Assembly (NCBI GenBank): GCA_964630825.1
Contig: CAZVZR010000002.1
Span: 19,648 to 83,647 of the forward strand
DNA from: an uncultured Planctomycetales bacterium
GTDB lineage: Bacteria; Omnitrophota; Gorgyraeia; Zapsychrales; Zapsychraceae
Direction of reading: 5' to 3'
Length of the DNA: 64,000 nt
How positions within the stretch are numbered: the stretch's first letter is position 1; every line of letters begins with the position of its first letter. Positions 7,804 to 24,945 of this stretch are shown one piece after another. The notes below the pieces were generated by a model. It was not told the origin of the DNA, searched no databases, and was given only the letters and a program-made list of their open reading frames with translations. Position numbers and translations under genes: made by a program.

Positions 7804-8695
7804 CCTTCAAACAGCGTCAATGAGCCCGTTATCTGATTTGGGCCAAAGGGAAAGAATCCGTTTCCCCAATCTTTTTATTGTCGGCTTCCCCCGAAGCGGG
7901 ACGACATCTTTGCATTATTGTCTTAATCAACACAAAGATATTTATATGCCGCCGCAAAAGGAATTATTTTTTTTTGCTCAAGAAATTTTTCAAAGATTAT
8001 GTCCACAGAGCAAGCCAGTATCTCTTGAGGAATACTTGGAACATTTTCATGACAGAAGCCATAAATGGGTGGGAGAGGCAACGGCGTCATATATTTTTTA
8101 TAAACCTTCCCTAGAGCGCATCAAAGATTTTCTTCGAGACTCTGGCGAACCGTCTAAATTTATCATCATGATCCGCAATCCTGCCGAGGCCGTTTATTCT
8201 CTTTATAAATTTGTTTTTATGAAGTATCGAAATTTTATCAATGAAGATTTTCCGACATCCTGGCAAAATAGAGTCCTTAAAAGGAATGTGAACGGAATTG
8301 AAACTGCGGACTTCTATCCTTGGGAAATTTTTAATATTCACCAGCATACCAGGTGTTACATTGACGCATTTGGCAAGGACAGAGTTAAAATCATTCTTTT
8401 CGATGATTTTAAACAATCCCCGGGGCTAGTTTATCAGGACACCTTACGTTTCTTAGGCCTAGAAGAAGACGGCCGTCTCAATTGGAGTATTCAAAACCAA
8501 AGTTTTTCTGGCACTGGTTTCTTAAGGCGAGCTATAAACAAACTTTTAAGTTTTGACAGGCAAAAGTTTTGTGTTTACCCTAACGAATTAAAAACGGAAA
8601 TCGTTTCTTATTATAGTAATGAAATTGATGGGTTAGCCGATTTAATCAAACGTAATTTGACGCATTGGAAGAATATTAAAAATATCAAAACTTGA
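7790..8695 (+). CDS. Sulfotransferase (PAPS-dependent family)
   Basis: 5'-PSB motif FIVGFPRSGTTSL. 3'-PB-like region IIMIRNPAEAVYSLY. Confidence 0.8.
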   Translation: MATYNLQTASMSPLSDLGQRERIRFPNLFIVGFPRSGTTSLHYCLNQHKDIYMPPQKELFFFAQEIFQRLCPQSKPVSLEEYLEHFHDRSHKWVGEATASYIFYKPSLERIKDFLRDSGEPSKFIIMIRNPAEAVYSLYKFVFMKYRNFINEDFPTSWQNRVLKRNVNGIETADFYPWEIFNIHQHTRCYIDAFGKDRVKIILFDDFKQSPGLVYQDTLRFLGLEEDGRLNWSIQNQSFSGTGFLRRAINKLLSFDRQKFCVYPNELKTEIVSYYSNEIDGLADLIKRNLTHWKNIKNIKT

Positions 8696-8701
8696 TTGTC
8701 C

Positions 8702-9580
8702 ATGACCTCTTCGGTTTCCATCGTTATCCCAGTTTACAACGGCGCCAAAACTTTACGGCGATGCTTGAATTCCGTCCTGGATCAAGATTTTACCGATTAC
8801 GAAGTGATTGTTGTTAACAATAACTCGCTTGACGAAACAGAGCACGTTATTAAGGATTTCGCGAGCCAGTTCCCAAAAATCAAATATGTGTTTGAACCTT
8901 ACCGTTCCCGGGGCGCCGCTAGAAACACCGGTATCAGGTCAGCGCAAGGGGAAATCATCGCCATGACGGATTGTGATTGTATCGTGCCAACCCATTGGTT
9001 GAGCGAGCTTATAAAACCTATCGTCAATGAAAATGAGTCGATCGTTATGGGTGGCGAAATAGATTTAGTTGATACGGACTGGACAAGATTAATACAACGG
9101 AAAGACGAAGAGCTTCATGAGCGCAACACCGAAGGGGAGCACATTCATTTTTTAGATACAAAAAATTTTGCTGCGCGCAAAGAAGTTTTTCAGGAATTTA
9201 TGTTTGATCCGCATATAAAAAACCTCGAAGATTTTGAATTTTTATTAAAAATTGAAAAGAAAATAATGGTTCGGTATCTTAAGGAGGTTAAAGTTGGCCA
9301 TTTCCACGCGATTTCTTTAAGAAAATGGTTTAGTTGTAATTTTGACCGAGGCTATTGGGCAAGGAAGATTTATGAAAATCATAAAAGCAAGTTGCATATC
9401 AAGGATATCCCGATATTAAGCGGCATGTCTTTGAGAAGTAGTTTAGCTTTTCCTTTCTGGATAATTATGCAGTTTATGGTTAAGCCTTTTCAAGAGGCAT
9501 GTTTTACATTTGTTTCAGAAATTTCCTGGAGATCGGGTATTCTTACCGCACAATTATATAAATGGGCTCCGCAGAACTAA
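8702..9580 (+). CDS. Family 2 glycosyltransferase, paralogue A of a tandem pair
   Basis: VSIVIPVYNGAKTLRRCLNSVLDQDFTDYEVIVVNNNS. DCDC region. C-terminal amphipathic/membrane segment. ATG at 8702; the track's 8696 start is a TTG. Confidence 0.8.
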   Translation: MTSSVSIVIPVYNGAKTLRRCLNSVLDQDFTDYEVIVVNNNSLDETEHVIKDFASQFPKIKYVFEPYRSRGAARNTGIRSAQGEIIAMTDCDCIVPTHWLSELIKPIVNENESIVMGGEIDLVDTDWTRLIQRKDEELHERNTEGEHIHFLDTKNFAARKEVFQEFMFDPHIKNLEDFEFLLKIEKKIMVRYLKEVKVGHFHAISLRKWFSCNFDRGYWARKIYENHKSKLHIKDIPILSGMSLRSSLAFPFWIIMQFMVKPFQEACFTFVSEISWRSGILTAQLYKWAPQN

Positions 9581-10461
9581 CGAATCCTTTCGTCACGGTC
9601 ATTATTCCTGTTTATAACGGGGCATCGACATTGCAACAATGTTTGCGGTCGGTCTTAAATCAAGAATATTCTCACTTTGAGATTGTCGTTGTTGATAATA
9701 ATTCCACTGATACATCAAGAAGAGTTATTCAAGAAGTGCAAAAGAACGAGAAAAAATTGAGTTATATTTTTGAGCCAATGCAAGCAAGGGGCGCTGCCCG
9801 GAATGCGGGTATTAATGCCGCTTGCGGCGAGATTATTTTAATGACCGATCAACATTGTTTCGTGCCTAGCGATTGGATAAAAAAGCTCATTGGGCCCATT
9901 ATTAACGAAGGTGAATTTATTGTTATGGGAGGTGAGCGCGACGCGGTTGGCCGTTTTTGGACAAAAATTATCAGTCAGCGTAATAAGGAATTTCGTGCCC
10001 GAAACCGCAATGGTTTATATATAAAGTATCTGGATACAAAAAATTTCGCCGCGCGTAAAGATGTCCTCAGGCAATATATGTTTAATCCACAACAAAGAAA
10101 TTTAGAAGACATTGAATTTTCTTTGAGGATTGCCGGTAATATTCGTATCCGTTATATGCCTGAAGTTTACGTTGATTATTTTCGTCCGATTTCGCTGGGG
10201 CGCTTGGCTAAAAATAGTTTTTCCCGGGGTTTTTGGGCTAGGAAGATTTATGACAATTATAAAAATAAACCGAATCTTGAGAGAATGCCGATGCTGGAGA
10301 GCATGTCGTTAAAGAACCAATTGGCCTTTATCCCGTGGGCAATATACCAGTTCATAAAGAAGCCGTTTAGTGAAGCATTTTTTATATTGGTTGCCGACGG
10401 GTCCTGGAGGTTGGGCGCCTTGGCGTCCCAACTAAATAAGAGAGTTGAAAGCTTTACTTAA
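9562..10461 (+). CDS. Family 2 glycosyltransferase, paralogue B of a tandem pair
   Basis: VTVIIPVYNGASTLQQCLRSVLNQEYSHFEIVVVDNNS. About 50 % identical to the preceding gene along its whole length (NFAARKDVLRQYMFNP vs NFAARKEVFQEFMFDP). Confidence 0.8.
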   Translation: MGSAELTNPFVTVIIPVYNGASTLQQCLRSVLNQEYSHFEIVVVDNNSTDTSRRVIQEVQKNEKKLSYIFEPMQARGAARNAGINAACGEIILMTDQHCFVPSDWIKKLIGPIINEGEFIVMGGERDAVGRFWTKIISQRNKEFRARNRNGLYIKYLDTKNFAARKDVLRQYMFNPQQRNLEDIEFSLRIAGNIRIRYMPEVYVDYFRPISLGRLAKNSFSRGFWARKIYDNYKNKPNLERMPMLESMSLKNQLAFIPWAIYQFIKKPFSEAFFILVADGSWRLGALASQLNKRVESFT

Positions 10462-10540
10462 AAAGTCTTCTTGCCTATAGGCCCAGCTGTTGTTATGTAA
10501 ACTTAAAGATTCCGGCTCGTAAACAGGTACATCTATTCCG

Positions 10541-11804: not shown

Positions 11805-12815
11805 ATGAGAAAAAAATTATTTTTAATTCTTATATTTTCTTTTTTATGCGGAGTATATCTTACTAATCGGCTGTCTTGGAGGGGGGGATTAGAGAAGGTG
11901 CCTTTCAACAACGATCCTATTCATAAGAAAGATGAGATCTTTTGGCATAATTTTATGCTTTTTCTGGATGAAGACAATCGCGTTATAAAGACACTGCATG
12001 AAAATAACGGTTGGCTATTATTGGAAGCAATTATGCGTGAAAAACTTGATGGGGTCGTTCCGGAAAGATTAAAAATATTGGCGCGCAGTTTTGGGAATGA
12101 GGCAGGCTTGTGGGGCTGGTGGCCTGAAAATGTTATGAAGACAGGCAGAAGATACTTTATACCAGCGCCTCATTTAAAAACGTATAAGTCTTATGACGTC
12201 GATGATACGGCGTGGGGGGCCAAATTAAATCATCGGCTTTTAACCGAGGAAATTGTTAAGAATTTTATGTATGATACTGATCTATCTGGAGATTTTCAGT
12301 CACGCTGTGCGGAAATCAAATGCCAAAAACAGTTTATATTGCGGTTATGGAAAGATATTCAGAATCTCCCCCCAAAATATAACATCAATATTGTCTGCAT
12401 CGCCAATGCCATTTCGGTTTTGGACTTAAACTCAGGCCAAAATCGGGTTATATTTGAAGAGAATAAAAAGTTTATAAATCATATCGTGGAAAATTTTGAC
12501 TATAACGAGTATTTTGAGTTCTATGCCCCCAAAATTACCGGAACATTTCTATTGCTTTTCTATGACAAGGAATATAGAAACTTTCTATCGAACGCCGCTA
12601 GAGATAAATTGATGAAAGATCTGTTGGCGCATTATGAGGAATTGCAAGACGCGGCCATTGAGGCTAAATGGGGTGTGAGTGAGAGGGTCTTACTTAATGT
12701 CGGCGGGTATAATATCACTGCCGTTAACGCTAAAATACCGCAATTAATGTATGCTTATGTGATAAAAAATTGGTTGAAAGAAAATGCACAACAGCCAGCC
12801 ACAACCGCAAATTAA
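11805..12815 (+). CDS. Hypothetical protein with an N-terminal membrane anchor
   Basis: A 336-aa ORF with an N-terminal hydrophobic helix (LFLILIFSFLCGVYL), plausible coding composition and no recognisable domain. Confidence 0.5.
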   Translation: MRKKLFLILIFSFLCGVYLTNRLSWRGGLEKVPFNNDPIHKKDEIFWHNFMLFLDEDNRVIKTLHENNGWLLLEAIMREKLDGVVPERLKILARSFGNEAGLWGWWPENVMKTGRRYFIPAPHLKTYKSYDVDDTAWGAKLNHRLLTEEIVKNFMYDTDLSGDFQSRCAEIKCQKQFILRLWKDIQNLPPKYNINIVCIANAISVLDLNSGQNRVIFEENKKFINHIVENFDYNEYFEFYAPKITGTFLLLFYDKEYRNFLSNAARDKLMKDLLAHYEELQDAAIEAKWGVSERVLLNVGGYNITAVNAKIPQLMYAYVIKNWLKENAQQPATTAN

Positions 12816-14295
12816 ATCTATGAATGTCATCCTCGTCGCTGTCCAGGGACAGCTTGCTAATGACGGGACGCGCTTGATCTCTTCTTTATTGAAAAGAGAG
12901 GGACACCGCGTTAAAACCGTTTTTTTGGCGCGTTACGCACCTATTCTTTATCAAGATCAAGAAATAGAGGAGCTCGACGACATCCTTCGGGATGGGGACC
13001 TTGTCCTTATGTCTGTTTACAGCTGTTACGTTGGAAGAGCCATTCAGATCACCAATTATATTCATAAAGAATACCCGGGGATGAAAGTCATTTGGGGCGG
13101 GCCACACTGCATCGGCGCCGCCGAACTAAGCCTGCGTTACGCCGATGGTGTTTGCTTTGCTGAGGCTGAAGATGCGATCGTTGAGCTGGTTAACAAATTG
13201 GCAGCCAGAGAAGATTATCAAGGTATTCGTAATATGGCATTTAAAGAAAAAGGGTCGCCTATTATAAACAGCGTGCGGCCGGCGATAATGGATCTGGACA
13301 GGCTTCCTTATTTTGATTATGACAGGAAGGATCATTTTATATTAGACAAAGAACTTTTGCCGATGACACCGGAATTGTTTGTTAAGAACCATTGCAAGTA
13401 TCCTTTTAATCGCCCGATGTTGCATGTTTTGACCACCAGGGGCTGTCCTTTAAAATGTACTTTTTGTAATAATGTCCGGTTTACGGAAATGTATGGAAAG
13501 AACCGCCTTCGGTTTCGCAGCTTTGAAAATGTTATCGGCGAAATCGAGTATATATTCAATAAAATCGATTGTTTTGATGAAGTAGGTTTTGCCGACGATG
13601 ATTTTCTGGCCAGGCCGGCGAAGGAACTGGCAGAGTTTGCCCAGCAATATAAAAAAAGAATAGGCCGGCCTTTTGCTCTGGCGACGTCGCCTACAACTTA
13701 TCAAAAAGAAAAGATGGAAATCTTGCTTGATGCCGGCCTTGTTTTTATCCAAATCGGGGCGCAATCAGGCAGCGAGCGCGTTTTAAAGGAGGTTTATGAC
13801 AGGCATATCCCTATTAAAAAGACCTTGGATGTTGTGCGTCAGGTTTCTTCTTACCAAAAATCACACGGTATGCAGTTGGTTATGGACTTTATTGTCGATA
13901 ATCCCTACGAGACACCGGAGGATATTATTCAGACATACCATCATTTTGTAGACATTCTCGGTTATGGGGTCGGTATCAATATTTTTCCGCTTTCTTTTTA
14001 TCCCGGCACACCGCTTTTTAAGAAAGCCCTTCAGGATGGCCTTATCAGCCCGGAAGGCATGGAACTTTTCCGTCCAGGGAAAGATCCTGACTCACGGTTT
14101 CAGAATAATTATCCAATGGTGCTCTTATTGTTGGCGTATGTTTTATATCAGCGGAATTTATTTTTTAGAGTGCCCAGGCGTTTGTTAAAGTTTCTCGGAA
14201 GCCCGGGAGTATGCAAAATTGCTTCAATTTTACCGCGAAGTTTTTATGCCTTTCTGTTGAAAGTTGTAAATCATTTCACCATTAAATTTGGTTAA
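12784..14295 (+). CDS. B12-binding-domain radical SAM enzyme (class-B-like)
   Basis: N-terminal Rossmann-like cobalamin-binding-type domain (MNVILVAVQG...VIWGGPH). Radical SAM motif CPLKCTFC. The start may be the internal Met at 12820. Confidence 0.75.
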   Translation: MHNSQPQPQIKSMNVILVAVQGQLANDGTRLISSLLKREGHRVKTVFLARYAPILYQDQEIEELDDILRDGDLVLMSVYSCYVGRAIQITNYIHKEYPGMKVIWGGPHCIGAAELSLRYADGVCFAEAEDAIVELVNKLAAREDYQGIRNMAFKEKGSPIINSVRPAIMDLDRLPYFDYDRKDHFILDKELLPMTPELFVKNHCKYPFNRPMLHVLTTRGCPLKCTFCNNVRFTEMYGKNRLRFRSFENVIGEIEYIFNKIDCFDEVGFADDDFLARPAKELAEFAQQYKKRIGRPFALATSPTTYQKEKMEILLDAGLVFIQIGAQSGSERVLKEVYDRHIPIKKTLDVVRQVSSYQKSHGMQLVMDFIVDNPYETPEDIIQTYHHFVDILGYGVGINIFPLSFYPGTPLFKKALQDGLISPEGMELFRPGKDPDSRFQNNYPMVLLLLAYVLYQRNLFFRVPRRLLKFLGSPGVCKIASILPRSFYAFLLKVVNHFTIKFG

Positions 14296-14353
14296 GTGGC
14301 CGGGGAATTTTTTGCATTTTTTGGACTTAAATTCCTTAGGGCTTAATGAGTTA

Positions 14354-16486
14354 ATGCCTAATATGAAAATAAAAATTATTGGGATTTTTATATTCATCGC
14401 AGTGGCCTGCCTACTTATCTTTCTTAGGAAAGAAGTTTTAATATCAAAAAATTATTCTCTGCAGTCTTTAATGCAACGGCGGATAGTAGATTTAAAAAGG
14501 GACTTAAGGAGGTTACCTAAGGGACACCAGTTGGAAAGATTTAATATTTTAGGCGAATTGGGTTTTTCGGCTCTTATTCTCAACCGGCATGAGGAGTCCG
14601 AATCATATTATTTAGAAGCTCGGGAAGTACTTAAAAATCTGCAATTAACGAAGTATGAATTGGTGGAGAACGCTCAACCGTTTTATCTGGATATGGCGCT
14701 GAATTATTTGAAATGGGCGGATAAAGATAACGCAAAAGAGAAGAAAATTCAGAAAGCAACAGCTCTTTTATACGAATACCTAGGGTTAGACCATGATAAT
14801 CTGACAGCTTATTGGTTACTCAACTTATGTTATTTAAAGCTCGAGCGCTACGATGAGCTTGAAGAAAAGTACAAGGTGCTGTTTCCTGGTTTAGGAGCGC
14901 AGGGTAGTTTATCTTTGTTTAAAAATATTGCGCCTAAATTAAAGGTGGATGTCTTGGGATACCTAGGTGGTATAGTTATCGAGGATTTTGATAATGATGG
15001 GTTCCTGGACATTATGGTATCTGATTATGATGCCGGGGCTCAGTTGCGGTATTTTCATAATAATGGTAACGGATCATTTACGGATAAAACTCAGGAAGCT
15101 CATTTGACTGGAGTTGTGGGCGGGCGGAATCTCGTGCAAGCAGATTATGATAATGATGGCTTTATTGATGTCTTTGTTGTGCGCGGTGTTGGGTATGATG
15201 GCTCAAATTTACTTTTGCATAATAACGGTGATGGTACGTTTAGTGACGTGACATTCGAGGCTGCACCAAGCGGCATGGGTTCTTTTTCCATGGTGGCGGC
15301 ATGGTCGGATTTTGATAATGACGGCGATCTCGATCTTTTCGTCGGTAATGCGGTCGGGAGAATCACCGATACATTATTGAGTTATCGTTACCATAATGAA
15401 TCAAAGAGTAAGAAAGAAATTTCTTTTGAAAATTATCTCTTCCTTAATGATGGTAAGGGGCATTTTAAGAACATCGCCAAACAAGCGGGAGTTGATAGGA
15501 CTTTTTACCTGTATGGTGCAAGCTGGGGAGATTTTAATAATGATCGTTTCTCCGATCTTTATGTTTCAACATACAACGGCAATAACTTACTTTTTCGCAA
15601 TAATCGTGATGGAACGTTTACTGATGTATCTGAAGTATTTGGGCCAACTAAGCCTTGGACCGGGTCATCGGCATGGTTTTGGGATTATAATAACGACGGT
15701 AATTTGGATATTTTTGCTTCACAAAATCATTTAGATGAAAATATAACAGTTAAAAGTTACACCTCACCACCTTATGCAGAGCAATTTTTACCGGCTCTTT
15801 ATGAGGGCAGCAAGGACGGCCGATTCCGTAATGTAGCGCCGAAAAAAGGTTTTCAAGTTGCTTCGTCTTCACCCGGCTCTAATTTCGCTGATTTGGATAA
15901 TGACGGTTATCCAGATATATTCTTGGGTAATTTGGGACTATTTGTTTATGGCTTATCTGTTAACAGAATTTATCATAATAGACAAGGCGAAAGTTTTGAC
16001 GTCGCGGGGAATTGGATCGGGGCGGATATTATCCATCAAGATATTGGCGGTGTTGCTTTCGGGGATTTGGATAATGACGGAGATCAGGATATTTATTTAA
16101 ATACCGGGGGAGTGATTTGGCAGGACAATGATGTATTATTAGAAAATCCCGGATTTGGCAACAATTGGATAAAGATCAGGTTAGTTGGAAAAGTTTCTAA
16201 CCGTTCGGCAATCGGCGCTCGGATAAGGGCTGATATAATCGAAGGAAATCAGAAGCGAAGCGTCTATGCTTATGTTGATAGCGGTGGGAAGTGTGGGTCT
16301 AACAGTTTACAGCAGCATTTGGGTTTAGGCAAAGCGGTGAATGTAGATACACTTGAAATTTACTGGCCGACATCAAATACAACTCAAGTATTTCATAATG
16401 TACCGGCGAATGTGTCGCTTAAAATTGTCGAAGGTGAGGATAAATACAGCGTTATTGAGTTACCAGCCGTGAATAATTCTCGGTAA
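14354..16486 (+). CDS. CRTAC1-family protein: TPR-like N-terminus, FG-GAP/VCBS repeats and a C-terminal ASPIC/UnbV domain
   Basis: Repeated FDNDGFLDIMVS, YDNDGFIDVFVV and FDNDGDLDLFVGN blocks. C-terminal NNWIKIRLVGKVSNRSAIGARIRA (ASPIC/UnbV). Signal-anchor MPNMKIKIIGIFIFIAVACLLIF. Start chosen at the first in-frame ATG. Confidence 0.75.
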   Translation: MPNMKIKIIGIFIFIAVACLLIFLRKEVLISKNYSLQSLMQRRIVDLKRDLRRLPKGHQLERFNILGELGFSALILNRHEESESYYLEAREVLKNLQLTKYELVENAQPFYLDMALNYLKWADKDNAKEKKIQKATALLYEYLGLDHDNLTAYWLLNLCYLKLERYDELEEKYKVLFPGLGAQGSLSLFKNIAPKLKVDVLGYLGGIVIEDFDNDGFLDIMVSDYDAGAQLRYFHNNGNGSFTDKTQEAHLTGVVGGRNLVQADYDNDGFIDVFVVRGVGYDGSNLLLHNNGDGTFSDVTFEAAPSGMGSFSMVAAWSDFDNDGDLDLFVGNAVGRITDTLLSYRYHNESKSKKEISFENYLFLNDGKGHFKNIAKQAGVDRTFYLYGASWGDFNNDRFSDLYVSTYNGNNLLFRNNRDGTFTDVSEVFGPTKPWTGSSAWFWDYNNDGNLDIFASQNHLDENITVKSYTSPPYAEQFLPALYEGSKDGRFRNVAPKKGFQVASSSPGSNFADLDNDGYPDIFLGNLGLFVYGLSVNRIYHNRQGESFDVAGNWIGADIIHQDIGGVAFGDLDNDGDQDIYLNTGGVIWQDNDVLLENPGFGNNWIKIRLVGKVSNRSAIGARIRADIIEGNQKRSVYAYVDSGGKCGSNSLQQHLGLGKAVNVDTLEIYWPTSNTTQVFHNVPANVSLKIVEGEDKYSVIELPAVNNSR

Positions 16487-17183
16487 TTTCACGAGAATTT
16501 CCCTCCTCTAAAATTTTTCCCTTCTTTAACCAAATCACGCGGTCACAGCTTTTCAAATGGGCCATATTATGATCGACAAAAATAATTGTTGTTCCTTCCG
16601 CCGCTTTTTTGATTAATGCCTGTTTAAATAATTCAACATACTGTTGATCAAGATTATTTGCCGGCTCATCTAAAAGAAGGATATCGGGGTCACAATGCAT
16701 GGCTATGGCAAAGATGAAACGGCTTATCATTCCCATGGATAACTGATTGAGCTTTGTGTCTTGGCGGCCTTGAAGCCCGGCCATTTTGATAATAGAAGGA
16801 ATTTTTTCTTTAATGGTTTTTCGGGTAAGTCCAAATAAGGAGCAATATAAATAGATATTATCAAGAAGCGTTAAACGGATTCTAAAGGCTTGGCTTAGGC
16901 CAATGAAGGAAACAATATGCCCGTGCACCTTGATTTCCCCTTGGTCGGGCGTGTAAATACCGGCAATGAGGCTTATCAAAGTAGTTTTTCCTGCACCATT
17001 GTCACCTATAATTCCGACGATTTCTCCGGCTTTAATGGAAAAGGAAACATTTTGTATGGCCCACAGGTATTTTTGGGTTTCTTCTTTAGCGAAAAATTGA
17101 ATAAACTTAGTCAGCGAATCTTGAGGATGAGAATCCCGGACAAGAAACCGTTTCGATAAATTATTGACGACGATGCGGTCCAT
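16452..17183 (-). CDS. ABC transporter ATP-binding protein, Wzt/TagH/KpsT-like polysaccharide exporter, lacking a C-terminal carbohydrate-binding domain
   Basis: Walker A GIIGDNGAGKTTL. Signature LSMGMISR. Walker B ILLLDEP. The 3' end overlaps the convergent CRTAC1-like gene by 35 nt. Confidence 0.8.
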   Translation of the reverse strand: MDRIVVNNLSKRFLVRDSHPQDSLTKFIQFFAKEETQKYLWAIQNVSFSIKAGEIVGIIGDNGAGKTTLISLIAGIYTPDQGEIKVHGHIVSFIGLSQAFRIRLTLLDNIYLYCSLFGLTRKTIKEKIPSIIKMAGLQGRQDTKLNQLSMGMISRFIFAIAMHCDPDILLLDEPANNLDQQYVELFKQALIKKAAEGTTIIFVDHNMAHLKSCDRVIWLKKGKILEEGNSREITENYSRLVTQ

Positions 17184-17824
17184 TAGATAAATTCAGGGAT
17201 TTTTTTTGTTAATTTTTGAAATAACATATGCCCTATTAAAAAAAATAGCAGGCTTTGAACAACCAAGCCTCCAACTAGCCAAGCCTGAGGCAGGCGTTCA
17301 TAAATAATCAAATCTCTGGCGATGGTGATGAAATAGTAGAGAGGATTGATTTTGTTAATTAAAAACAGCACGGGATAATCATTAGCGGAGTAAAAAATGG
17401 GAGTGGCAAACCAAAATAACTGTGAGACAAAAAGCCAAATATTGCTTAAGTCCTTAAAATGAACGGTTAAGGAAGATAAAGCCAGGCAAACTCCATAGCT
17501 GAAAATCATAAAAAATAATAAAAGTAACGGGTAATACAATAGATTAAAGAGCGATAATTTGAAGTATAGCAAGAAAATCGCGAAGACAAAAATTTCAAAC
17601 AAATGGGCATAAAAATTTTTTAAGATAATACAGCCAATAAGAGCTTCTAAAGGAAATTTTATAGATTTGATGACAACACGGCTTTCATCCAGAATGCGAG
17701 TTGCTTCGGCAGTGACAAGGCGAAAATAGTTAAAGAGAATAACTCCTAAAAGAAGATAGAGAGGATATCCGGGCACACTAGTACCGAGATTGTGGGAGAA
17801 TATTACTAAGAGGAGGGTAAACAA
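17183..17824 (-). CDS. ABC-2 type transporter permease (Wzm/TagG-like)
   Basis: Six hydrophobic helices. Immediately upstream of, and start/stop-coupled to, the ATPase gene. Confidence 0.7.
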   Translation of the reverse strand: MFTLLLVIFSHNLGTSVPGYPLYLLLGVILFNYFRLVTAEATRILDESRVVIKSIKFPLEALIGCIILKNFYAHLFEIFVFAIFLLYFKLSLFNLLYYPLLLLFFMIFSYGVCLALSSLTVHFKDLSNIWLFVSQLFWFATPIFYSANDYPVLFLINKINPLYYFITIARDLIIYERLPQAWLVGGLVVQSLLFFLIGHMLFQKLTKKIPEFI

Positions 17825-17950
17825 TAAGAGAGGGTTTAATAAATACCAGAGGATGCCCAGGAAATTTCCTTCATTTTTTAATTTAAACTCGGCTCGGGCT
17901 AATGCTATACTTAATTTTAAACTTTCTAACGAAATTGAAATCTCCTTTTT

Positions 17951-19729
17951 ATGCTTTCAACAGCCATCGGTCTAATTCTCTTTCTGTTTCCTTTATTATT
18001 AGTTTATCGTTTCCAAGATAAAATTTTAGGTTTTGTCTATATTCTTTCTGGAATTATTGCCGGACATCTCATTATTGCTCTAGTGACCCAGGCCTTAAAT
18101 ATTTTTACCTATCCCTGTATTATTTTTGTTCACACTATAATTATGTTATTGGTTATAGGCGATATCATCAAGGATAAAAATTTTCGTTTAATTTTTTTAA
18201 AAAAATTGAAAGTAGATTGGATATTTATTCTAAGTTTAATCATTATATTTATTCATCTTTACCAAGTCCATTACAATTATTCCGGAAAATATTCAACAGT
18301 TGTTTTAAATCCAACCTTTCAGGAAGCGAGGGGGATGGTTTATCCCTACCCCTATTTCGTGGATGAATGGCATGCCATTATCTTTACGAAATATGCAATA
18401 CGGTATAATACATTGGCGTTAACCAATCCATTGTTACCTTTTCATTCTCTCATCCCGAATTTTGCTTTTGTTTTTCACGGTTTCCTGGCCGAACTTTTTG
18501 TTTTATTTTCCCTCGACCCTCTTAAATATTATGTACCGTTAACTATGATTTGCAGCATGCTTATCTGCATTTTAATTTATTGGCTACTGCGTTATGAGAA
18601 AGCAGGAAAATTAACAGCAGCGATGGCGAGTTTGTCAACCTTATACATTACCAATGGGGCTAATCTGCCGGGCTTGTGGACACTGATTCCAGCGACGATG
18701 ACGGTTATTTGCCTTTTATTAGCTTTTTTCTTTGTTATTGCAAAAGATTTCAGGGTGGTGGTTGTTGCGCTGTTAATGGGTTTGGCTTTTTACCCGGCAG
18801 CGCTGTTTTTTTATTTAATAATTTTTATAGCCGCTGTTATAGGCGATCGAAAATTGATCTTAAGAGATAAAATAAATTTAAGCGCCATATTGTTATTGGG
18901 TATTTTTATTGTTGGGGGCGTTCATGCAGGGGCGTATTGGGGAATGGGGAAAAGCTTTAGCAGCTTACTAAAAAACAGGGTTTATGCGGAAAATTTGATT
19001 ACAGATTCTATTCCTCAATACGTCATGGGAGATATTGTTCCGGTACCGATTATTATTTTTGCGGCGGTAGGTTTTTTAAAGATCTGGCGACGGCGCCCTT
19101 GGCTGGCCGGATTGCTGGTTTTAGGTTTGTCGTATTGGCTTTTTTATGCGTTTTCGACAAAGCGGATTCTTATCGATTATCAACGCGTGGTTATTTTGAC
19201 TTCTATTATTTTGGTTATTATATCGGGGTATGGGTTGGATGTTGTGGTAACAGCTGTTTCAAAAAGGTGGCCACCTTTTTTGGTAAAAATAGCTAGTGCC
19301 CTGGTGTTGCTGTTTTCATTTTCAATTTCTTTTCACTATACACAAAGAGAACAATGGAGAAAACTGGTTGTTATAAATCAGAAAACCAAAGAAGTTTATC
19401 ATTCGGCAGCACCGGCGAACCGTTATCTGCAGGAAGATGATTTAGAAATTTTTAGAAATATTAAGCGCCGTATTTTTCTTGCTCCGCCTTGGAAAGGGAC
19501 GGTGGTCGCTGCCGCTACGGATAATTTTCCTTTAACCAGTAAGGTCGGGGTCATAGGCGATACCATCGATGTATACCGAAAATTTATGAGTGCCGATTGT
19601 GAGCAGAAATATACTTCTGCAAGAAATACGTACTTGGATTATGTGTATGTTCCATTTTTTAAATGTCCGCATTTTGAGCCTCTGATCCAAAGCCGGGAAG
19701 GCCTGGTTTTGTACCGCTTTTTGCCGTAA
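17951..19729 (+). CDS. Polytopic membrane protein (over 12 TM helices plus a ~130-aa C-terminal soluble domain). Possible GT-C-fold glycosyltransferase.
   Basis: Dense TM topology over ~460 aa. An acidic motif (PYFVDEWH) sits in an early extracytoplasmic loop. The gene lies between the ABC-2 exporter and the giant surface protein. Confidence 0.5.
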   Translation: MLSTAIGLILFLFPLLLVYRFQDKILGFVYILSGIIAGHLIIALVTQALNIFTYPCIIFVHTIIMLLVIGDIIKDKNFRLIFLKKLKVDWIFILSLIIIFIHLYQVHYNYSGKYSTVVLNPTFQEARGMVYPYPYFVDEWHAIIFTKYAIRYNTLALTNPLLPFHSLIPNFAFVFHGFLAELFVLFSLDPLKYYVPLTMICSMLICILIYWLLRYEKAGKLTAAMASLSTLYITNGANLPGLWTLIPATMTVICLLLAFFFVIAKDFRVVVVALLMGLAFYPAALFFYLIIFIAAVIGDRKLILRDKINLSAILLLGIFIVGGVHAGAYWGMGKSFSSLLKNRVYAENLITDSIPQYVMGDIVPVPIIIFAAVGFLKIWRRRPWLAGLLVLGLSYWLFYAFSTKRILIDYQRVVILTSIILVIISGYGLDVVVTAVSKRWPPFLVKIASALVLLFSFSISFHYTQREQWRKLVVINQKTKEVYHSAAPANRYLQEDDLEIFRNIKRRIFLAPPWKGTVVAAATDNFPLTSKVGVIGDTIDVYRKFMSADCEQKYTSARNTYLDYVYVPFFKCPHFEPLIQSREGLVLYRFLP

Positions 19730-19836
19730 GTCCCTGCCTTAAAAATCTTATCATTAAAAAAAATGAATAAGTATTGCAAATAGTATTAAGAAGTATATTA
19801 ATAAAAGTACAAACTTTATAAATATAAAGCTATAAG

Positions 19837-22800
19837 ATGCCCAACCTGTATAGTCACGGTCAATTCCGAATGATTCCATTTAGGCAAGTAATCCTTATTT
19901 GCCTTTTTATTTTAATTATTACAACACAAAGCGAAGCTGTCACCGTTAGCGGTACCGTCTACACCGACGAAGGCACCAGCCGCATGAGCGGCGGGGTGAC
20001 GGTGCGAGTTGTCGTGGAAGGGGTTTCGGCCGGGACAGATACGACCAGCACGACCAATTGCGCTACCAATGCCGCTCCCTGCGGTGCTTACAATGTCAGT
20101 GGAGTAACTATCAACGCGACAACTAATAGTATAATCGCTTATCTGGATACTAATGGTGGCAATGTCGGGACTGTTATTACACACAGCACATCAGCTGTCT
20201 TAGACAACACAACAGGTTTTGATATTTATCAAAATCATATCGCGATTGAGATGTTTCCTAATAACGGCAATGCTAATAAATCAGCTAGCAATCCTTGGAT
20301 AGATTCCGCCAATGATGCCTGTGATTATGATAAAGATAATGATACGGATATGCCCTATCAATGCTATCAGTATTTATTGTATGGCGATAATAATATTGAA
20401 TTTTATATTTGGTCAGCATCCACGTTTTCTTGGAATTCTGCCTCAACAGCACCTAGGTTAAATGTAGATGGTGTGGATATTCGGGGGCGCCTTTTGAGAG
20501 CAACAGCTAATTTTTATGTGGTTGACCGCGGGGATTGGAATTGCAGCAATTGTACACACGATGTTTCCACAACGGATATAACAACATTCGGCAGCGGTAG
20601 CAAGGCGCATTCTATTACGACAGGGAATGCACCTTTTGGATTAGTTGTCATTGACGAAGCAGGGCAAACCGTATCGACTACTGACGAGCTTTTAATAAAT
20701 GGTAATGTTGGGATAACTGTAACCGCCGGGACTTTGTCTCTGGGGGCAAAACTTCAGGACTATGGCGACTTGACCATTGGGGCTACAGGAACTTTAACAA
20801 CAAATAATTATCAAGTAAATGTGGGGGATGATTTTGTGATTAATTCCGGTGGTGTATTTAATGCCGGCTCGGGAACAGTGAGTTTTTCTGGCTTCACAAA
20901 CACCATGGCTGATCAAACCGTTACTACCTCCGGCCAGTTATTTAATAATGTATATATTAATAATACCCAGGGATCCAGTTCCGATGATATCATTCCTACG
21001 GATGATTGGGATATTGATGGGAATTTAATCATTAATGACGGGAATTTAAATATGAGCACGAATAATAAATCTATTATCCTGGCCGGGAATTGGGTGAGAG
21101 AACCGAATACAAATCATACTTGGGCTAAGGGGACGGGTAATTCGACAGTTACTTTCGATGGCGGCAGTACATCGACGTTTTCCAATAATGGCCTTAATGC
21201 GTCAAGAGTTGATAATTCAACTTACGATTTCAATAAAGTGGACGTGACCAACAATACGACTTTAAAGCTAGTGAATGGAGAACTTGAAGTAGATGGCACC
21301 TTGACGATTGCCTCGGGCGCGACGGTGAATCTTAATGGGCAGACACTGGATCTCAATGGGACGCTCAATAATAACGGAACGTTAAAGATACAGGGAAACG
21401 AAACCGATGTGGATATCGGTGTCATGGATAATGATTCGGGGACCGTCATGTATATTGGCGACGGTAATGGGACATCAAATGTCTATGCGGTACGTAATCA
21501 CAGCGCCGGCGCTTACTATAACCTGACCATCAATGATACAAATTCTACGGTCGACACGTTTACTTTTGATGCGCAAGCAGCGATTAATGGCACGCTTACG
21601 GTTGCCAACGGAAATACACTGGGCTTAAATGGTCAGACTCTGAATATGACCGGGGCGACGTTGTCGAATTCGGGGACGATCACAATGTTTGGTTCGGAAA
21701 CAGTGACTGTTGGGACATGGGACAATGACAGCGGGACCATAGTGTATGTCGGTAACGGCGATGGAGTAGTAGATACACGCAATATTTTGAACCCATCTTC
21801 CGTTGCGGGAACAGGTGATTTTTATAATTTGAGAATAAATGATACCAATTCTACCAAAGATGTATTTGCGTTGCAGGGGGACTTGGACGTTGACGGTGAT
21901 TTAACGATATCTTCAGGGACGTTGGATGTTTCTACCAATAATTATGCCATTGTCTTAGCCGGGACGTGGTTTAATAGCGGTACATTTGCTTCCCGGAGTG
22001 GGACGGTCACTTTCAATGGGACAATAGGCCAAGGGATTACTTTTTGCAGTGCCTGCAACACGACTTCATTTAGTTCGGTTGTGCTTACCAATGCTTCGAG
22101 TAGCGGCGTGACGTTTCTTGACGGTTTTACGACAACGAACTTGACAGATCAAACAGCGGGGTCTACTGTTACGGTTGCAGCGAGCAGTACATCAACGATT
22201 TCGGGAGCAATGACTATGCAGGGAACAAGTTCAAGCCAAGTACGGCTTAAAAGCGGCACGAGCTCAACACAGTTTACGTTTGATGTTCCTGGGGTCAAAC
22301 AAAACGTTTTTAATGTCAATGTGTCTGACTCAGCAGCCAGCAGCAATGATATTGTATGCCACAGTTGTACTAACGGCGGCGGCACGGATGCAGCTCAAGC
22401 CAGCCCGCATTGGGAATTTAGCTCCATAATCAGCGGTGTTGTTTACACGGATGAAGGCACCAGCCGCATGAGCGGCGGGGTGACGGTGCGAGTTGTCGTG
22501 GAAGGGGTTTCGGCCGGGACAGATACGACCAGCACGACCAATTGCGCTACCAATGCCGCTCCCTGCGGTGCTTACAATGTCAGTGGAGTAACTATCAACG
22601 CGACAACTAATAGTATAATCGCTTATCTGGATACTAATGGTGGCAATGTCGGGACTGTTATTACACACAGCACATCAGCTGTCTTAGACAACACAACAGG
22701 TTTTGATATTTATCAAAATCATATCGCGATTGAGATGTTTCCTAATAACGGCAATGCTAATAAATCAGCTAGCAATCCTTGGATAGATTCCGCCAATGAT

Positions 22801-24945
22801 GCCTGTGATTATGATAAAGATAATGATACGGATATGCCCTATCAATGCTATCAGTATTTATTGTATGGCGATAATAATATTGAATTTTATATTTGGTCAG
22901 CATCCACGTTTTCTTGGAATTCTGCCTCAACAGCACCTAGGTTAAATGTAGATGGTGTGGATATTCGGGGGCGCCTTTTGAGAGCAACAGCTAATTTTTA
23001 TGTGGTTGACCGCGGGGATTGGAATTGCAGCAATTGTACACACGATGTTTCCACAACGGATATAACAACATTCGGCAGCGGTAGCAAGGCGCATTCTATT
23101 ACGACAGGGAATGCACCTTTTGGATTAGTTGTCATTGACGAAGCAGGGCAAACCGTATCGACTACTGACGAGCTTTTAATAAATGGTAATGTTGGGATAA
23201 CTGTAACCGCCGGGACTTTGTCTCTGGGGGCAAAACTTCAGGACTATGGCGACTTGACCATTGGGGCTACAGGAACTTTAACAACAAATAATTATCAAGT
23301 AAATGTGGGGGATGATTTTGTGATTAATTCCGGTGGTGTATTTAATGCCGGCTCGGGAACAGTGAGTTTTTCTGGCTTCACAAACACCATGGCTGATCAA
23401 ACCGTTACTACCTCCGGCCAGTTATTTAATAATGTATATATTAATAATACCCAGGGATCCAGTTCCGATGATATCATTCCTACGGATGATTGGGATATTG
23501 ATGGGAATTTAATCATTAATGACGGGAATTTAAATATGAGCACGAATAATAAATCTATTATCCTGGCCGGGAATTGGGTGAGAGAACCGAATACAAATCA
23601 TACTTGGGCTAAGGGGACGGGTAATTCGACAGTTACTTTCGATGGCGGCAGTACATCGACGTTTTCCAATAATGGCCTTAATGCGTCAAGAGTTGATAAT
23701 TCAACTTACGATTTCAATAAAGTGGACGTGACCAACAATACGACTTTAAAGCTAGTGAATGGAGAACTTGAAGTAGATGGCACCTTGACGATTGCCTCGG
23801 GCGCGACGGTGAATCTTAATGGGCAGACACTGGATCTCAATGGGACGCTCAATAATAACGGAACGTTAAAGATACAGGGAAACGAAACCGATGTGGATAT
23901 CGGTGTCATGGATAATGATTCGGGGACCGTCATGTATATTGGCGACGGTAATGGGACATCAAATGTCTATGCGGTACGTAATCACAGCGCCGGCGCTTAC
24001 TATAACCTGACCATCAATGATACAAATTCTACGGTCGACACGTTTACTTTTGATGCGCAAGCAGCGATTAATGGCACGCTTACGGTTGCCAACGGAAATA
24101 CACTGGGCTTAAATGGTCAGACTCTGAATATGACCGGGGCGACGTTGTCGAATTCGGGGACGATCACAATGTTTGGTTCGGAAACAGTGACTGTTGGGAC
24201 ATGGGACAATGACAGCGGGACCATAGTGTATGTCGGTAACGGCGATGGAGTAGTAGATACACGCAATATTTTGAACCCATCTTCCGTTGCGGGAACAGGT
24301 GATTTTTATAATTTGAGAATAAATGATACCAATTCTACCAAAGATGTATTTGCGTTGCAGGGGGACTTGGACGTTGACGGTGATTTAACGATATCTTCAG
24401 GGACGTTGGATGTTTCTACCAATAATTATGCCATTGTCTTAGCCGGGACGTGGTTTAATAGCGGTACATTTGCTTCCCGGAGTGGGACGGTCACTTTCAA
24501 TGGGACAATAGGCCAAGGGATTACTTTTTGCAGTGCCTGCAACACGACTTCATTTAGTTCGGTTGTGCTTACCAATGCTTCGAGTAGCGGCGTGACGTTT
24601 CTTGACGGTTTTACGACAACGAACTTGACAGATCAAACAGCGGGGTCTACTGTTACGGTTGCAGCGAGCAGTACATCAACGATTTCGGGGACATTGACGT
24701 TGCAGGGGACACATAGTAGTGAAATGAGACTTAAAAGTAGCAGCGGCGGAACGCAATTTACCCTTAATGTCACTGGCGGTAACCAGAAGGTCTATCATGT
24801 CAATGTGTCTGACTCAGCAGCCAGCAGCAATGATATTAATTGCCGTAGCTGTACCAACGGCGGCGGCACGGATGCAGCTCAAGCCAGCCCGCATTGGGTA
24901 TTTAGCCCGCTGGTAGGTGCCGTGATGCGGGCGGAGGATAACTGA
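19837..24945 (+). CDS. Giant (1702 aa) Asn/Thr/Gly-rich beta-helical surface protein (adhesin or S-layer-like passenger repeats). No C-terminal beta-barrel.
   Basis: N-terminal signal-like segment MIPFRQVILICLFILIITTQSEA. Repetitive GxLxLxGxxxxxG and PATR-like blocks. About 35 N-x-S/T sequons per 828-aa repeat unit. Contains two tandem 2484-bp units. Confidence 0.8.
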   Translation: MPNLYSHGQFRMIPFRQVILICLFILIITTQSEAVTVSGTVYTDEGTSRMSGGVTVRVVVEGVSAGTDTTSTTNCATNAAPCGAYNVSGVTINATTNSIIAYLDTNGGNVGTVITHSTSAVLDNTTGFDIYQNHIAIEMFPNNGNANKSASNPWIDSANDACDYDKDNDTDMPYQCYQYLLYGDNNIEFYIWSASTFSWNSASTAPRLNVDGVDIRGRLLRATANFYVVDRGDWNCSNCTHDVSTTDITTFGSGSKAHSITTGNAPFGLVVIDEAGQTVSTTDELLINGNVGITVTAGTLSLGAKLQDYGDLTIGATGTLTTNNYQVNVGDDFVINSGGVFNAGSGTVSFSGFTNTMADQTVTTSGQLFNNVYINNTQGSSSDDIIPTDDWDIDGNLIINDGNLNMSTNNKSIILAGNWVREPNTNHTWAKGTGNSTVTFDGGSTSTFSNNGLNASRVDNSTYDFNKVDVTNNTTLKLVNGELEVDGTLTIASGATVNLNGQTLDLNGTLNNNGTLKIQGNETDVDIGVMDNDSGTVMYIGDGNGTSNVYAVRNHSAGAYYNLTINDTNSTVDTFTFDAQAAINGTLTVANGNTLGLNGQTLNMTGATLSNSGTITMFGSETVTVGTWDNDSGTIVYVGNGDGVVDTRNILNPSSVAGTGDFYNLRINDTNSTKDVFALQGDLDVDGDLTISSGTLDVSTNNYAIVLAGTWFNSGTFASRSGTVTFNGTIGQGITFCSACNTTSFSSVVLTNASSSGVTFLDGFTTTNLTDQTAGSTVTVAASSTSTISGAMTMQGTSSSQVRLKSGTSSTQFTFDVPGVKQNVFNVNVSDSAASSNDIVCHSCTNGGGTDAAQASPHWEFSSIISGVVYTDEGTSRMSGGVTVRVVVEGVSAGTDTTSTTNCATNAAPCGAYNVSGVTINATTNSIIAYLDTNGGNVGTVITHSTSAVLDNTTGFDIYQNHIAIEMFPNNGNANKSASNPWIDSANDACDYDKDNDTDMPYQCYQYLLYGDNNIEFYIWSASTFSWNSASTAPRLNVDGVDIRGRLLRATANFYVVDRGDWNCSNCTHDVSTTDITTFGSGSKAHSITTGNAPFGLVVIDEAGQTVSTTDELLINGNVGITVTAGTLSLGAKLQDYGDLTIGATGTLTTNNYQVNVGDDFVINSGGVFNAGSGTVSFSGFTNTMADQTVTTSGQLFNNVYINNTQGSSSDDIIPTDDWDIDGNLIINDGNLNMSTNNKSIILAGNWVREPNTNHTWAKGTGNSTVTFDGGSTSTFSNNGLNASRVDNSTYDFNKVDVTNNTTLKLVNGELEVDGTLTIASGATVNLNGQTLDLNGTLNNNGTLKIQGNETDVDIGVMDNDSGTVMYIGDGNGTSNVYAVRNHSAGAYYNLTINDTNSTVDTFTFDAQAAINGTLTVANGNTLGLNGQTLNMTGATLSNSGTITMFGSETVTVGTWDNDSGTIVYVGNGDGVVDTRNILNPSSVAGTGDFYNLRINDTNSTKDVFALQGDLDVDGDLTISSGTLDVSTNNYAIVLAGTWFNSGTFASRSGTVTFNGTIGQGITFCSACNTTSFSSVVLTNASSSGVTFLDGFTTTNLTDQTAGSTVTVAASSTSTISGTLTLQGTHSSEMRLKSSSGGTQFTLNVTGGNQKVYHVNVSDSAASSNDINCRSCTNGGGTDAAQASPHWVFSPLVGAVMRAEDN
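19957..24924 (+). repeat. Intragenic tandem duplication of two 2484-bp units. The 2235-bp core (19972-22206) is identical to 22456-24690. The 3' ~200 bp of each unit has diverged.
   Basis: Direct comparison of the text. The track's antisense ORFs 19912-20184 and 22330-22668, and 21222-21449 and 23706-23933, are identical pairs exactly 2484 nt apart. Confidence 0.9.

Follow-up and report, generated by a model that had tools for sequence, protein, structure and literature searches.

We describe here a membrane protein of 592 amino acids that is encoded in a 64,000-nucleotide stretch of DNA (the window) from an uncultured bacterium of the Omnitrophota, contig CAZVZR010000002.1, together with the gene module to which it belongs. 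The predicted structure of the protein has the glycosyltransferase C (GT-C) fold and carries a C-terminal domain of the oligosaccharyltransferase (OST) type, and its relatives form a new GT-C family in Omnitrophota, bacteria of the candidate phyla radiation (CPR) and DPANN archaea. Its linkage to an ABC-2 exporter and to glycosyltransferases of families GT4 and GT2 is conserved across phyla and domains. We are confident that the protein is a GT-C enzyme that uses a lipid-linked donor on the outer side of the membrane, and it is probably functionally coupled to the glycan that the ABC-2 transporter would export. More tentatively, we propose that the family is a compact one built like a minimal OST, which acts at the end of a portable module of five genes and serves as a general O-type OST; we consider the arguments for and against this composite model to be nearly balanced. 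The same holds for its central step, the en bloc transfer of the glycan to protein.

The genes at the centre of this work lie side by side, in the order that a previous sequence-only reading of the window had given, and the open reading frames (ORFs) of the 592-aa and the 1702-aa protein are both intact:

16452..17183, minus strand: ABC exporter ATPase consisting of a nucleotide-binding domain only, Wzt/TagH-like (Pfam ABC_tran, PF00005, 6.8e-26, 91.9 bits)
17183..17935, minus strand: ABC-2 (Wzm-like) permease (Pfam ABC2_membrane, PF01061, 43.5 bits against a cut-off of 26.9)
17951..19729, plus strand: 592-aa GT-C-fold, OST-like glycosyltransferase of an unannotated family
19837..24945, plus strand: 1702-aa secreted all-beta protein rich in N, T, S and G (from the ORF and its translation)

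The 592-aa protein is polytopic, as had been recognised before, with about 15 transmembrane helices followed by a soluble C-terminal domain of about 125 residues. Its AlphaFold2 model (pLDDT 92.2) has a membrane domain that can be laid over GT-C enzymes of known structure, which places the predicted structure in the GT-C superfamily (GT-C_A fold), and the top 13 Foldseek matches are all STT3/PglB. In the membrane-protein comparison list the values given are 16.2 for ALG12, 15.4 for ArnT, 15.3 for PglB, 15.1 for AfAglB-L, 14.5 for STT3B, 14.5 for ALG9 and 13.9 for AftA. A GT-C-like enzyme of an undescribed family had been suspected from the sequence, and a transporter or another non-GT-C fold had been named as the outcome that would speak against it; neither was obtained, transporters appearing in Foldseek only at E>0.5 and a TM score of about 0.1, and we reject that assignment. 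Beyond what had been guessed, the model shows a C-terminal, extracytoplasmic domain like the 'CC unit' of GT66 enzymes. In the short AglBs of Archaeoglobus fulgidus, the CC unit is the sole extramembrane unit, carries the WWDYG and DK motifs and is indispensable for OST activity (PMC3703281).

At the level of sequence, the family stands alone. The 592-aa protein belongs to no family in Pfam or NCBIfam and has no match to Pfam STT3, PMT or PMT_2; a Pfam scan of 42 aligned members likewise gave no family match, two members reaching DUF6541 below threshold. Profile searches of the PDB, whether based on the full-length alignment or on the C-terminal domain, returned no match at E<=10, and when hhalign compared the C-terminal domain with a small alignment of the WWDYG region, the probability was 0.1%, which is not significant. 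There is no Wzy_C match in the 592-aa protein, and the single Wzy_C_2 match among the 42 members (E 3.1) is noise; no WaaL- or RodA-type structure was among the significant fold matches (RodA E 2.9). Among 5.8 billion proteins searched for homologues, 97 were full-length relatives of about 600 aa, with identities of 30-42%, and a profile search of 1.84 billion cluster representatives found 637 proteins at E<=1e-3 (305 at E<=1e-30), or about 640 clusters at 50% identity. Since only 637 of 1.84 billion representatives are reached and the PDB and Pfam searches are empty, the family is compact and isolated in sequence space. In the literature searched, there was no paper on DUF6541, nor on GT-C enzymes or OSTs of CPR bacteria. 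This is a new GT-C family, distinct from GT66 and from the Wzy_C enzymes.

The conserved residues were taken from an alignment of 215 family members. G112, P134, D138, Y281 and R412 are invariant, E139 (214/215), W140, W243, W396, W514 and K515 are conserved at 99%, K531 and C550 at 98%, C572 at 97%, K553 at 87% with a further 7% Arg, and A557 at 65%. There are four motifs. The long loop 109-172 contains PYPYFxDEW (with D138 and E139), residues 238-243 form N-L-P-G-x-W, and the C-terminal domain has P-W-K-G-T at 513-517 and C-x-x-K-x-x-x-A at 550-557, on the helix 550-559. Since the loop 75-89, before the transmembrane helix 90-108, holds five Lys or Arg residues, the positive-inside rule suggests that loop 109-172 lies outside the membrane, as external loop 1 (EL1) of GT-C enzymes does. 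On this predicted topology D138 and E139 occupy the first long external loop, where the acidic catalytic residues of GT-C enzymes are found, and three additional N-terminal transmembrane helices precede this EL1-like loop. The C-terminal domain would be extracytoplasmic too, and the Cys pair C550 and C572 fits this placement.

An adjacent Asp-Glu pair in EL1 is typical of the GT-C enzymes that transfer monosaccharides, PMT and ArnT. The C-terminal domain, judged by sequence order and secondary structure, looks towards the OSTs: an FLSxPWKGT-helix stands where OSTs have the strand-WWDYG-helix, and C550-x-x-K553-x-x-x-A557 resembles the DK pattern DxxKxxx(M/I), with Cys as the first signature residue. 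W-W-D-[YWF]-G itself is absent from the 592-aa protein, as had been noticed before, and also from its 215 relatives, and the loop 331-364, at the position of EL5, has no conserved acid in the 215 members. In our reading, an OST-like scaffold would here be combined with PMT/ArnT-like chemistry, which suits a hydroxyl acceptor better than an Asn amide. Certain basic and aromatic residues of the membrane domain (R412 and Y281 invariant, W396 and W243 at 99%) may correspond to the reactive centre of MtPMT. In MtPMT this centre includes R441 and Y444 in later transmembrane helices, and the reactive centre that GT-C enzymes have in common contains an invariant Arg in a late helix (PMC12331936).

The exporter genes abut at 17183 in the side-by-side organisation of Wzm/Wzt pairs. 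The best NCBIfam matches of the pair are TagH, galactan Wzt and Wzm/RfbD, all below the equivalog cut-offs; for the ATPase the values are 2.9e-46 (TagH-type) and 1.2e-35 (galactan Wzt). The Wzm/Wzt-type pair of the sequence-only reading thus holds, and only the start of its permease has to be moved. The permease frame is open upstream of the TTG at 17824 for about 37 further residues (ESLKLSIALARAEFKLKNEGNFLGILWYLLNPLL), to about 17935, and the permease with this extension aligns from residue 8 with its orthologue in L051, the locus whose GT-C protein is closest to that of the window, at 52% identity over 245 residues. Given that this conserved in-frame N-terminus contains no ATG, GTG or TTG, and that an AGGAG at 17946-17942 precedes an ATT at 17935, the permease probably starts at this non-canonical ATT, 15 nt from the divergent GT-C start codon, and not at TTG 17824.

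To define the gene context of the family, 88 loci were fetched beside the window, and the gene-presence counts refer to all 89. The loci come from CPR/Patescibacteria, including Staskawicz-, Nomura-, Andersen-, Falkow- and Taylorbacteria, Paceibacterota and metagenome-assembled genomes (MAGs) labelled Saccharibacteria, from DPANN archaea (Woese-, Pace- and Nanoarchaeia), from one Omnitrophota MAG (L051, 42% identical to the window GT-C) and, in a few cases, from MAGs with other phylum labels. An unbiased clustering of neighbouring ORFs of at least 80 aa in 85 non-redundant loci recovered GT2 in 64 loci, GT4 in 53, the ABC ATPase in 52, the ABC-2 permease in 50 and GT8 in 17, all other families being found in at most eight. 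Counted over the 89 loci, relatives of the window ATPase occur in 56 and of the permease in 53, and the most conserved partner of the family is the GT4 enzyme encoded at 6214..7302. In about 23 loci, no more than 130 bp separate the permease gene from the GT-C gene. Another large group has a 381-aa GT2 directly behind the GT-C gene and GT4 behind that; the best matches of this GT2 are AglJ (TIGR04182, 3e-45, 154.7 bits against a cut-off of 325 bits) and a haloarchaeal dolichyl-phosphate hexose transferase (2.5e-29), and an AglJ-like GT2 is present at E<1e-40 in 62 of the 89 loci. A Bac_transf phosphoglycosyltransferase was found in only two of them, and the clustering of the 85 loci revealed no conserved second flippase of the GtrA, MATE or SMR type.

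The arrangement of the window, GT4-...-GT2-GT2-UbiA-FG-GAP-...-ABC(-)-ABC2(-)-GT-C(+), is repeated in L051 and, in a simpler form with an AglJ-like gene, in the near relatives L090 and L092. The window GT4 is 50% identical to a member from Falkowbacteria and 58% identical to one from a MAG labelled as an archaeon, while the GT-C proteins of these loci are only 32-40% identical to that of the window. Since the GT4 is 50-58% identical between bacterial and archaeal loci, the module has evidently moved between the domains. L006, a contig of Nanoarchaeia, has two paralogues of the GT-C family, at 6664-8439 and 10001-11776, 1.5 kb apart, which adjoin a PMT_2-type GT-C, an AglJ-like GT2, GT4, GT2 and the ABC-2 pair, so that three GT-C enzymes are encoded in one locus. 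L091 (JGI 3300009788) is an exception to the module, as its GT-C relative (42% identity) is accompanied by neither ABC-2 nor glycosyltransferase genes and adjoins three sulfatase/phosphodiesterase genes and a PAPS reductase, again a link to sulfate chemistry.

Based on these observations, we propose the following model, for which the predicted fold, the conserved residues, the linkage of the genes and their spread over taxa have been observed, while the lipid-linked donor, the en bloc transfer, the chemistry and the acceptor are deduced. First, the glycan would be started on polyprenyl phosphate, by the AglJ-like polyprenyl-phosphate hexosyltransferase where this is present, as in most loci. 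The cytoplasmic GT4 and GT2 enzymes would then extend it, and in the window the sulfotransferase and radical SAM enzymes would tailor it. The Wzm/Wzt-like ABC-2 pair, which is the only transporter of the module, would export the lipid-linked glycan, and the GT-C enzyme would move it, on the outer face of the membrane, onto a hydroxyl-bearing acceptor, D138/E139 of the first external loop forming the catalytic centre and R412 holding the phosphate. The acceptor would most likely be secreted or surface proteins in general, of which the Ser/Thr-rich giant next to the GT-C gene is one candidate. Given that no second flippase is conserved and that a phosphoglycosyltransferase occurs in two loci only, we believe that one initiator, one transporter and one external transferase make the most economical scheme, and for the same reason we favour en bloc transfer over the decoration of an independently made polymer. 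Since CPR bacteria, DPANN archaea and a diderm bacterium must all possess the acceptor, it should be either protein or the glycan of the module itself; the OST-type C-terminal domain makes us lean to protein, and the Asp-Glu chemistry, together with the absence of the residues that activate Asn, makes us lean to O-linkage over N-linkage.

If the acceptor were the module's own glycan, the GT-C enzyme would add single sugars to it after export, outside the membrane, from a polyprenyl-phosphate-monosaccharide supplied by the AglJ/GtrB-like GT2 or possibly by the UbiA enzyme of the window, in parallel with GtrC, with the GT136 enzyme ORF12 and with the mycobacterial Aft and Emb proteins. We consider this somewhat unlikely. 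An Asp-Glu pair in EL1 would be at home in such an enzyme, as it is in PMT and ArnT, and the AglJ/GtrB-like synthase is the commonest neighbour of the family, often directly downstream of the GT-C gene. ABC-transporter-dependent O-antigen loci with exactly this kind of add-on have been documented (PMC11127046). In the window and in L051 a UbiA gene replaces the AglJ-like gene, which recalls the polyprenyl-phosphoribose synthases of pentofuranose systems. However, modification after export would call for a flippase for the donor and a phosphoglycosyltransferase for a separate main chain, neither of which is conserved, and the C-terminal domain matches an OST-specific unit and not a carbohydrate-binding module. 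Nor does the UbiA protein help, as we could not uphold its assignment as a recognisable polyprenyl-phosphoribose synthase: NCBIfam gave generic prenyltransferase matches only and a sequence search of the PDB gave none.

A protein need not be the end point of an exported glycan. Wall teichoic acid, which is exported through an ABC-2 pathway, ends on peptidoglycan, and the window ATPase is most similar to TagH/Wzt. ABC-2-exported O-antigen ends on the lipid A-core (PMC11127046), and the source organism itself makes lipid A and has an outer membrane, as its LpxL-like gene, Lnt and Alginate_exp porin indicate. The GT-C enzyme could accordingly act as an analogue of WaaL or LCP proteins and move the polymer to a membrane lipid or a cell-wall polymer, forming a lipoglycan or a wall-linked, possibly sulfated, polysaccharide; that no acceptor protein is conserved near its gene would then be expected. 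We nevertheless hold this to be very unlikely, because Omnitrophota with LPS, CPR bacteria and wall-less DPANN archaea share no lipid or wall acceptor and because the fold is not like that of WaaL or Wzy_C.

We return, then, to protein as the acceptor, and to the giant that is encoded downstream. The sequence-only reading had described it as a secreted beta-helical protein dense in N-x-S/T sequons. The length, a plausible signal peptide (...VILICLFILIITTQSEA/VT) and the number of sequons are borne out, whereas beta-helical can be kept only in the sense of all-beta, as the AlphaFold2 model has a mean pLDDT of 59.5 (about 70-90 at residues 430-828) and Foldseek found nothing significant, the solenoids of autotransporters, S-layer proteins and tailspikes appearing at E>0.7, which is no evidence. 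The mature protein consists of two tandem units of 828 aa (19942-22425 and 22426-24909), whose cores (about 19950-22230 and, 2484 nt further downstream, its copy) show 100% DNA identity; the 25 amino-acid differences between the units all lie at the unit ends (residues 36-40 and 791-863). A pure assembly artefact was considered and rejected, since unique sequence is found at the unit ends and at the junction, and because of this junction a real tandem duplication with recent homogenisation or gene conversion is more likely than an artefact, though the identical core may have been collapsed or expanded, or the gene may be partly misassembled. The protein is rich in Thr (14%), Asn (11%), Gly (11%) and Ser (10%), and 13 homologues were found, all partial and distant.

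One 828-aa unit has 35 N-x-S/T sequons where composition-preserving shuffles give 22.8±3.9 (z 3.1, P ~0.0015). The excess comes from N-x-T (24 against 13.4), and reversed or shifted control tripeptides are not enriched. At 4.2 per 100 aa, the sequon density is by far the highest of the 45 window ORFs, whose sequon z values average 0.47±1.23, and the giant unit is among the two top values. The GT-C gene and the giant gene are adjacent, on the same strand and 107 bp apart, without a terminator-like site between them. Such features, together with the OST-like architecture of the enzyme and the presence of giant secreted neighbours with sequon z values of 8-14 (60-126 sequons) in four DPANN loci (L021 12067-15954, L030 12065-15934, L006 12948-20021 and L026 13050-17924), might suggest that enzyme and substrate form an encoded pair dedicated to N-glycosylation of the giant at N-x-S/T. 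Given that no homologue of the giant occurs in the other 88 loci, that L051, L090 and L092, the nearest syntenic loci, have no giant gene beside GT-C, that the giant gene has a GC content of 0.449, like the flanking genome and not like the low-GC island in which the GT-C gene lies, that the giant neighbours of bacterial loci (L059, L080, L032 and L001, among them the CPR ones) have z<1.5, and that the enzyme lacks WWDYG, the second DXD and the EL5 glutamate for amide activation, we find this pairing barely credible. Orthologous loci without the surface protein are, moreover, the very finding that the sequence-only reading had named as speaking against its proposal, and its sequon argument is weakened by the modest size of the excess. 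Beta-solenoid repeats, too, can yield a periodicity of N-x-T. As for the archaeal giants, DPANN archaea are reported, in a passage of PMC8993221 that cites Nikolayev 2020, to have their own AglB, of which the sequon-saturated proteins are probably the substrates, and their sequon signal therefore does not implicate the GT-C family. The giant of the window remains a plausible substrate, one among others and not a dedicated partner, and we think it unlikely that it is in fact glycosylated by its neighbour.

Several observations weigh against the O-type OST model that we prefer. A polyprenyl-phosphate-sugar synthase beside a GT-C gene is equally a hallmark of three-component glycan-modifying systems (PMC11127046). 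No sequence of the form W-[WYF]-D-[YWFN]-G occurs in the reading frames of the window or in the ORFs of more than 300 aa of the fetched loci; the second DXD motif and the invariant EL5 glutamate are absent too, D138 and E139 being the only acids of the membrane part that are conserved at 85% or more. The fold of a domain does not by itself imply that peptides are recognised, and the register of P-W-K-G against WWDYG was not established by hhalign. No family of acceptor proteins is conserved near the GT-C gene in the 85 loci. ORFs of at least 900 aa account for 7 of 160 immediate neighbours and for 9 of 699 genes from rank 4 outwards (Fisher test, one-sided, P 0.017). This enrichment is only about three-fold, and the comparison is biased in its favour, as the truncation of loci at their ends lowers the far-rank count; these giant neighbours are mutually unrelated, save for a few pairs. 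The 64 kb of the window contain no AglJ-like gene, the best GT2 scoring 2e-10 against the AglJ-like query.

The remaining genes of the cluster, between 2.5 and 16.5 kb, are in order GT2, radical SAM, UbiA, MORN, GT4, sulfotransferase, two GT2, two unknown ORFs, B12-radical SAM and FG-GAP/ASPIC, the principal ones being:

2506..3519, plus strand: GT2 glycosyltransferase, EpsD-like (Pfam Glycos_transf_2 5.3e-28; NCBIfam EpsD 4e-34, below cut-off)
3516..4601, plus strand: radical SAM/SPASM-type protein (Pfam Radical_SAM 6e-16; a relative in only 3 of the 89 loci, not a conserved partner)
4625..5470, plus strand: UbiA-family prenyltransferase (Pfam UbiA 8.7e-15; L051 orthologue 3e-46)
6214..7302, plus strand: GT4 glycosyltransferase, WbaZ-1-like (Pfam Glycos_transf_1 1.4e-31; relatives in 60 of the 89 loci)
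7303..7803, plus strand: 166-aa ORF like the N-terminal domain of the conserved GT4 (weak Pfam Glyco_transf_4; phmmer matches to the GT4 genes of 59 loci)
7790..8695, plus strand: sulfotransferase (Pfam Sulfotransfer_3 4.5e-14)
8696..9580, plus strand: GT2 of the conserved partner type (Pfam Glycos_transf_2 3.2e-37; relatives in 55 of the 89 loci)
9562..10461, plus strand: GT2, paralogue of the 8696..9580 gene (Pfam Glycos_transf_2 2e-33; relatives in 54 of the 89 loci)
12784..14295, plus strand: B12-binding radical SAM enzyme (Pfam B12-binding and Radical_SAM; relatives in 5 of the 89 loci, not a conserved partner)
14288..16486, plus strand: FG-GAP/ASPIC repeat protein with an N-terminal membrane anchor (Pfam FG-GAP_3 6e-48, UnbV_ASPIC 1.4e-12)

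That these upstream genes build the glycan had been supposed from the sequence; the link to GT4 and GT2 is indeed conserved and sulfotransferase and/or APS-kinase genes recur (L002, L003 and L004), but the radical SAM genes have too few relatives to count as partners. The C-terminal half of the GT4 matches PDB 2f9f (WbaZ-1 of A. fulgidus) at 4.4e-51. The B12-binding enzyme is probably concerned with glycan tailoring, and the FG-GAP/ASPIC protein is common only to the window and L051 (orthologue 1e-152). The cluster from 2506 to 19729 is an island of low GC content, its genes lying at 0.34-0.43 and the flanks at 0.44-0.48. The EpsD-like GT2 forms its left edge (0.380 against 0.458 in the left flank), and its right-hand boundary is the end of the GT-C gene. 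The codon bias of membrane proteins contributes to the difference in GC.

Within the cluster, the 166-aa ORF overlaps the sulfotransferase ORF by 14 nt; it may represent a fragment of a gene, a split gene or a fusion with a frameshift, and in L004 a sulfotransferase is fused to a GT2. An ORF on the opposite strand to its neighbours (10541-11641, minus strand) has no family match and contains 8 sequons against 3.0 expected (z 3.3), which are small counts. Elsewhere in the window are genes for SecA, RF2, Lnt, an LpxL-like acyltransferase, an Alginate_exp porin, an H+-pyrophosphatase and nitrate/nitrite assimilation, and the source is a free-living diderm bacterium, not a member of the CPR. The RF2 gene, prfB, has a classical programmed +1 frameshift site at 25193-25264, where a short ORF from the ATG at 25193 ends in AGGGGG TTT CTT TGA C and precedes the 326-aa RF2 ORF (25307-26287). 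At 51564-56397, a GT2 gene (51564-52388) is followed by two genes, 52373-54130 and 54484-56397, whose products of about 600 aa both have an N-terminal part of about 420 aa without a Pfam match and C-terminal tetratricopeptide repeats (TPRs). This may be a second, independent glycosylation locus, as the architecture recalls the TPR-bearing O-oligosaccharyltransferases PglL and WsfB.

If the GT-C enzyme transfers ABC-exported glycans to proteins, it would represent a class of OST that escapes surveys by WWDYG or Wzy_C motifs. The family is found mainly in CPR bacteria, DPANN archaea and Omnitrophota, lineages that rely on contact with other cells and about whose surfaces next to nothing has been learnt. 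A module of five or six genes with a single enzyme of about 600 aa, which has crossed the boundary between bacteria and archaea, would be attractive both for the study of OST evolution and for glycoengineering. One may go further and see in the family a third OST lineage, derived from STT3/AglB, that kept the GT-C core and the CC unit, exchanged WWDYG for P-W-K-G, lost the Asn-activating residues and became a general protein glycosylase of the O-linked or another non-Asn type, supplied by an ABC-2 exporter; the module of GT-C, AglJ-like GT2, GT4, GT2, Wzm and Wzt would then have spread horizontally among CPR bacteria, DPANN archaea and Omnitrophota and would build the glycoprotein coat of ultra-small, largely uncultured cells. 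We regard this extended scenario as rather doubtful. Even if one of the other explanations is correct, what has been found is a new GT-C family of about 640 clusters with a confident model, candidate catalytic residues and a defined context, fit for inclusion in CAZy or Pfam.

Among known enzymes, the nearest in build are the GT66 proteins STT3, AglB and PglB, and especially AglB-S1 and AglB-S2 of A. fulgidus (about 590 aa), which have the same size and likewise combine a GT-C domain with a single small alpha/beta CC unit. These give the best Foldseek matches and share no sequence similarity with the 592-aa family by Pfam STT3, PDB profile or hhalign. In contrast to GT66 enzymes, the family has three extra N-terminal transmembrane helices, lacks WWDYG, the second DXD and the invariant EL5 glutamate, and is tied to an ABC-2 exporter and not to a flippase of the Wzx/AglR or PglK type. 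The PMT (GT39) and ArnT (GT83) enzymes have an adjacent Asp-Glu where the first juxtamembrane helix of EL1 begins, as in the DEW motif here. However, they transfer one sugar from a polyprenyl-monophosphate donor and have a different C-terminal domain, and Pfam PMT and PMT_2 do not match our family. The invariant late-helix Arg of the family recalls the one in the MtPMT reactive centre (PMC12331936).

As a pathway, the module can be compared with several systems. In the Agl pathway of Haloferax volcanii, AglJ and soluble glycosyltransferases assemble the glycan on a monophosphate carrier, from which AglB transfers it. Most family loci likewise pair the GT-C enzyme with an AglJ-like enzyme, GT2 and GT4, but the AglJ match is below cut-off, export is by an ABC-2 transporter, the AglB motifs are absent and the window has no AglJ-like gene. 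The three-component systems (GtrABC, and ORF15/ORF13/ORF12 of Citrobacter youngae O1, the last being the founder of GT136) also place a GT-C enzyme in an ABC-dependent locus beside a polyprenyl-phosphate-sugar synthase (PMC11127046), the pairing seen in 62 of the 89 family loci and replaced in the window by the UbiA-family gene. Mycobacterial arabinogalactan assembly, with Wzm/Wzt, a UbiA-type DPPR synthase and the Aft and Emb GT-C enzymes, has a UbiA-family gene in common with the window cluster. Unlike both, our family has an OST-like C-terminal domain and no conserved flippase for a monosaccharide donor, and the UbiA protein of the window is not a recognisable phosphoribosyltransferase.

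A parallel in logic is offered by the slg clusters of Geobacillus stearothermophilus and Paenibacillus alvei. There, as we propose for the module, the glycan is finished in the cytoplasm on a lipid carrier before Wzm/Wzt exports it, and outside the membrane it is passed to a surface protein (PMC2943079). WsaB, which the sequence-only reading had taken as its comparator for the enzyme, is in this respect misleading, because WsaB and WsfB carry a Wzy_C O-antigen-ligase domain (PMC2943079), whereas the 592-aa protein is of another fold class. The slg clusters also begin with a phosphoglycosyltransferase of the WsaP type, which is absent from the window module, and their S-layer gene encodes an established substrate, while the giant of the window is a candidate only. 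We regard the system as a new variant of ABC-transporter-dependent glycoconjugate assembly and not as a categorically new system.

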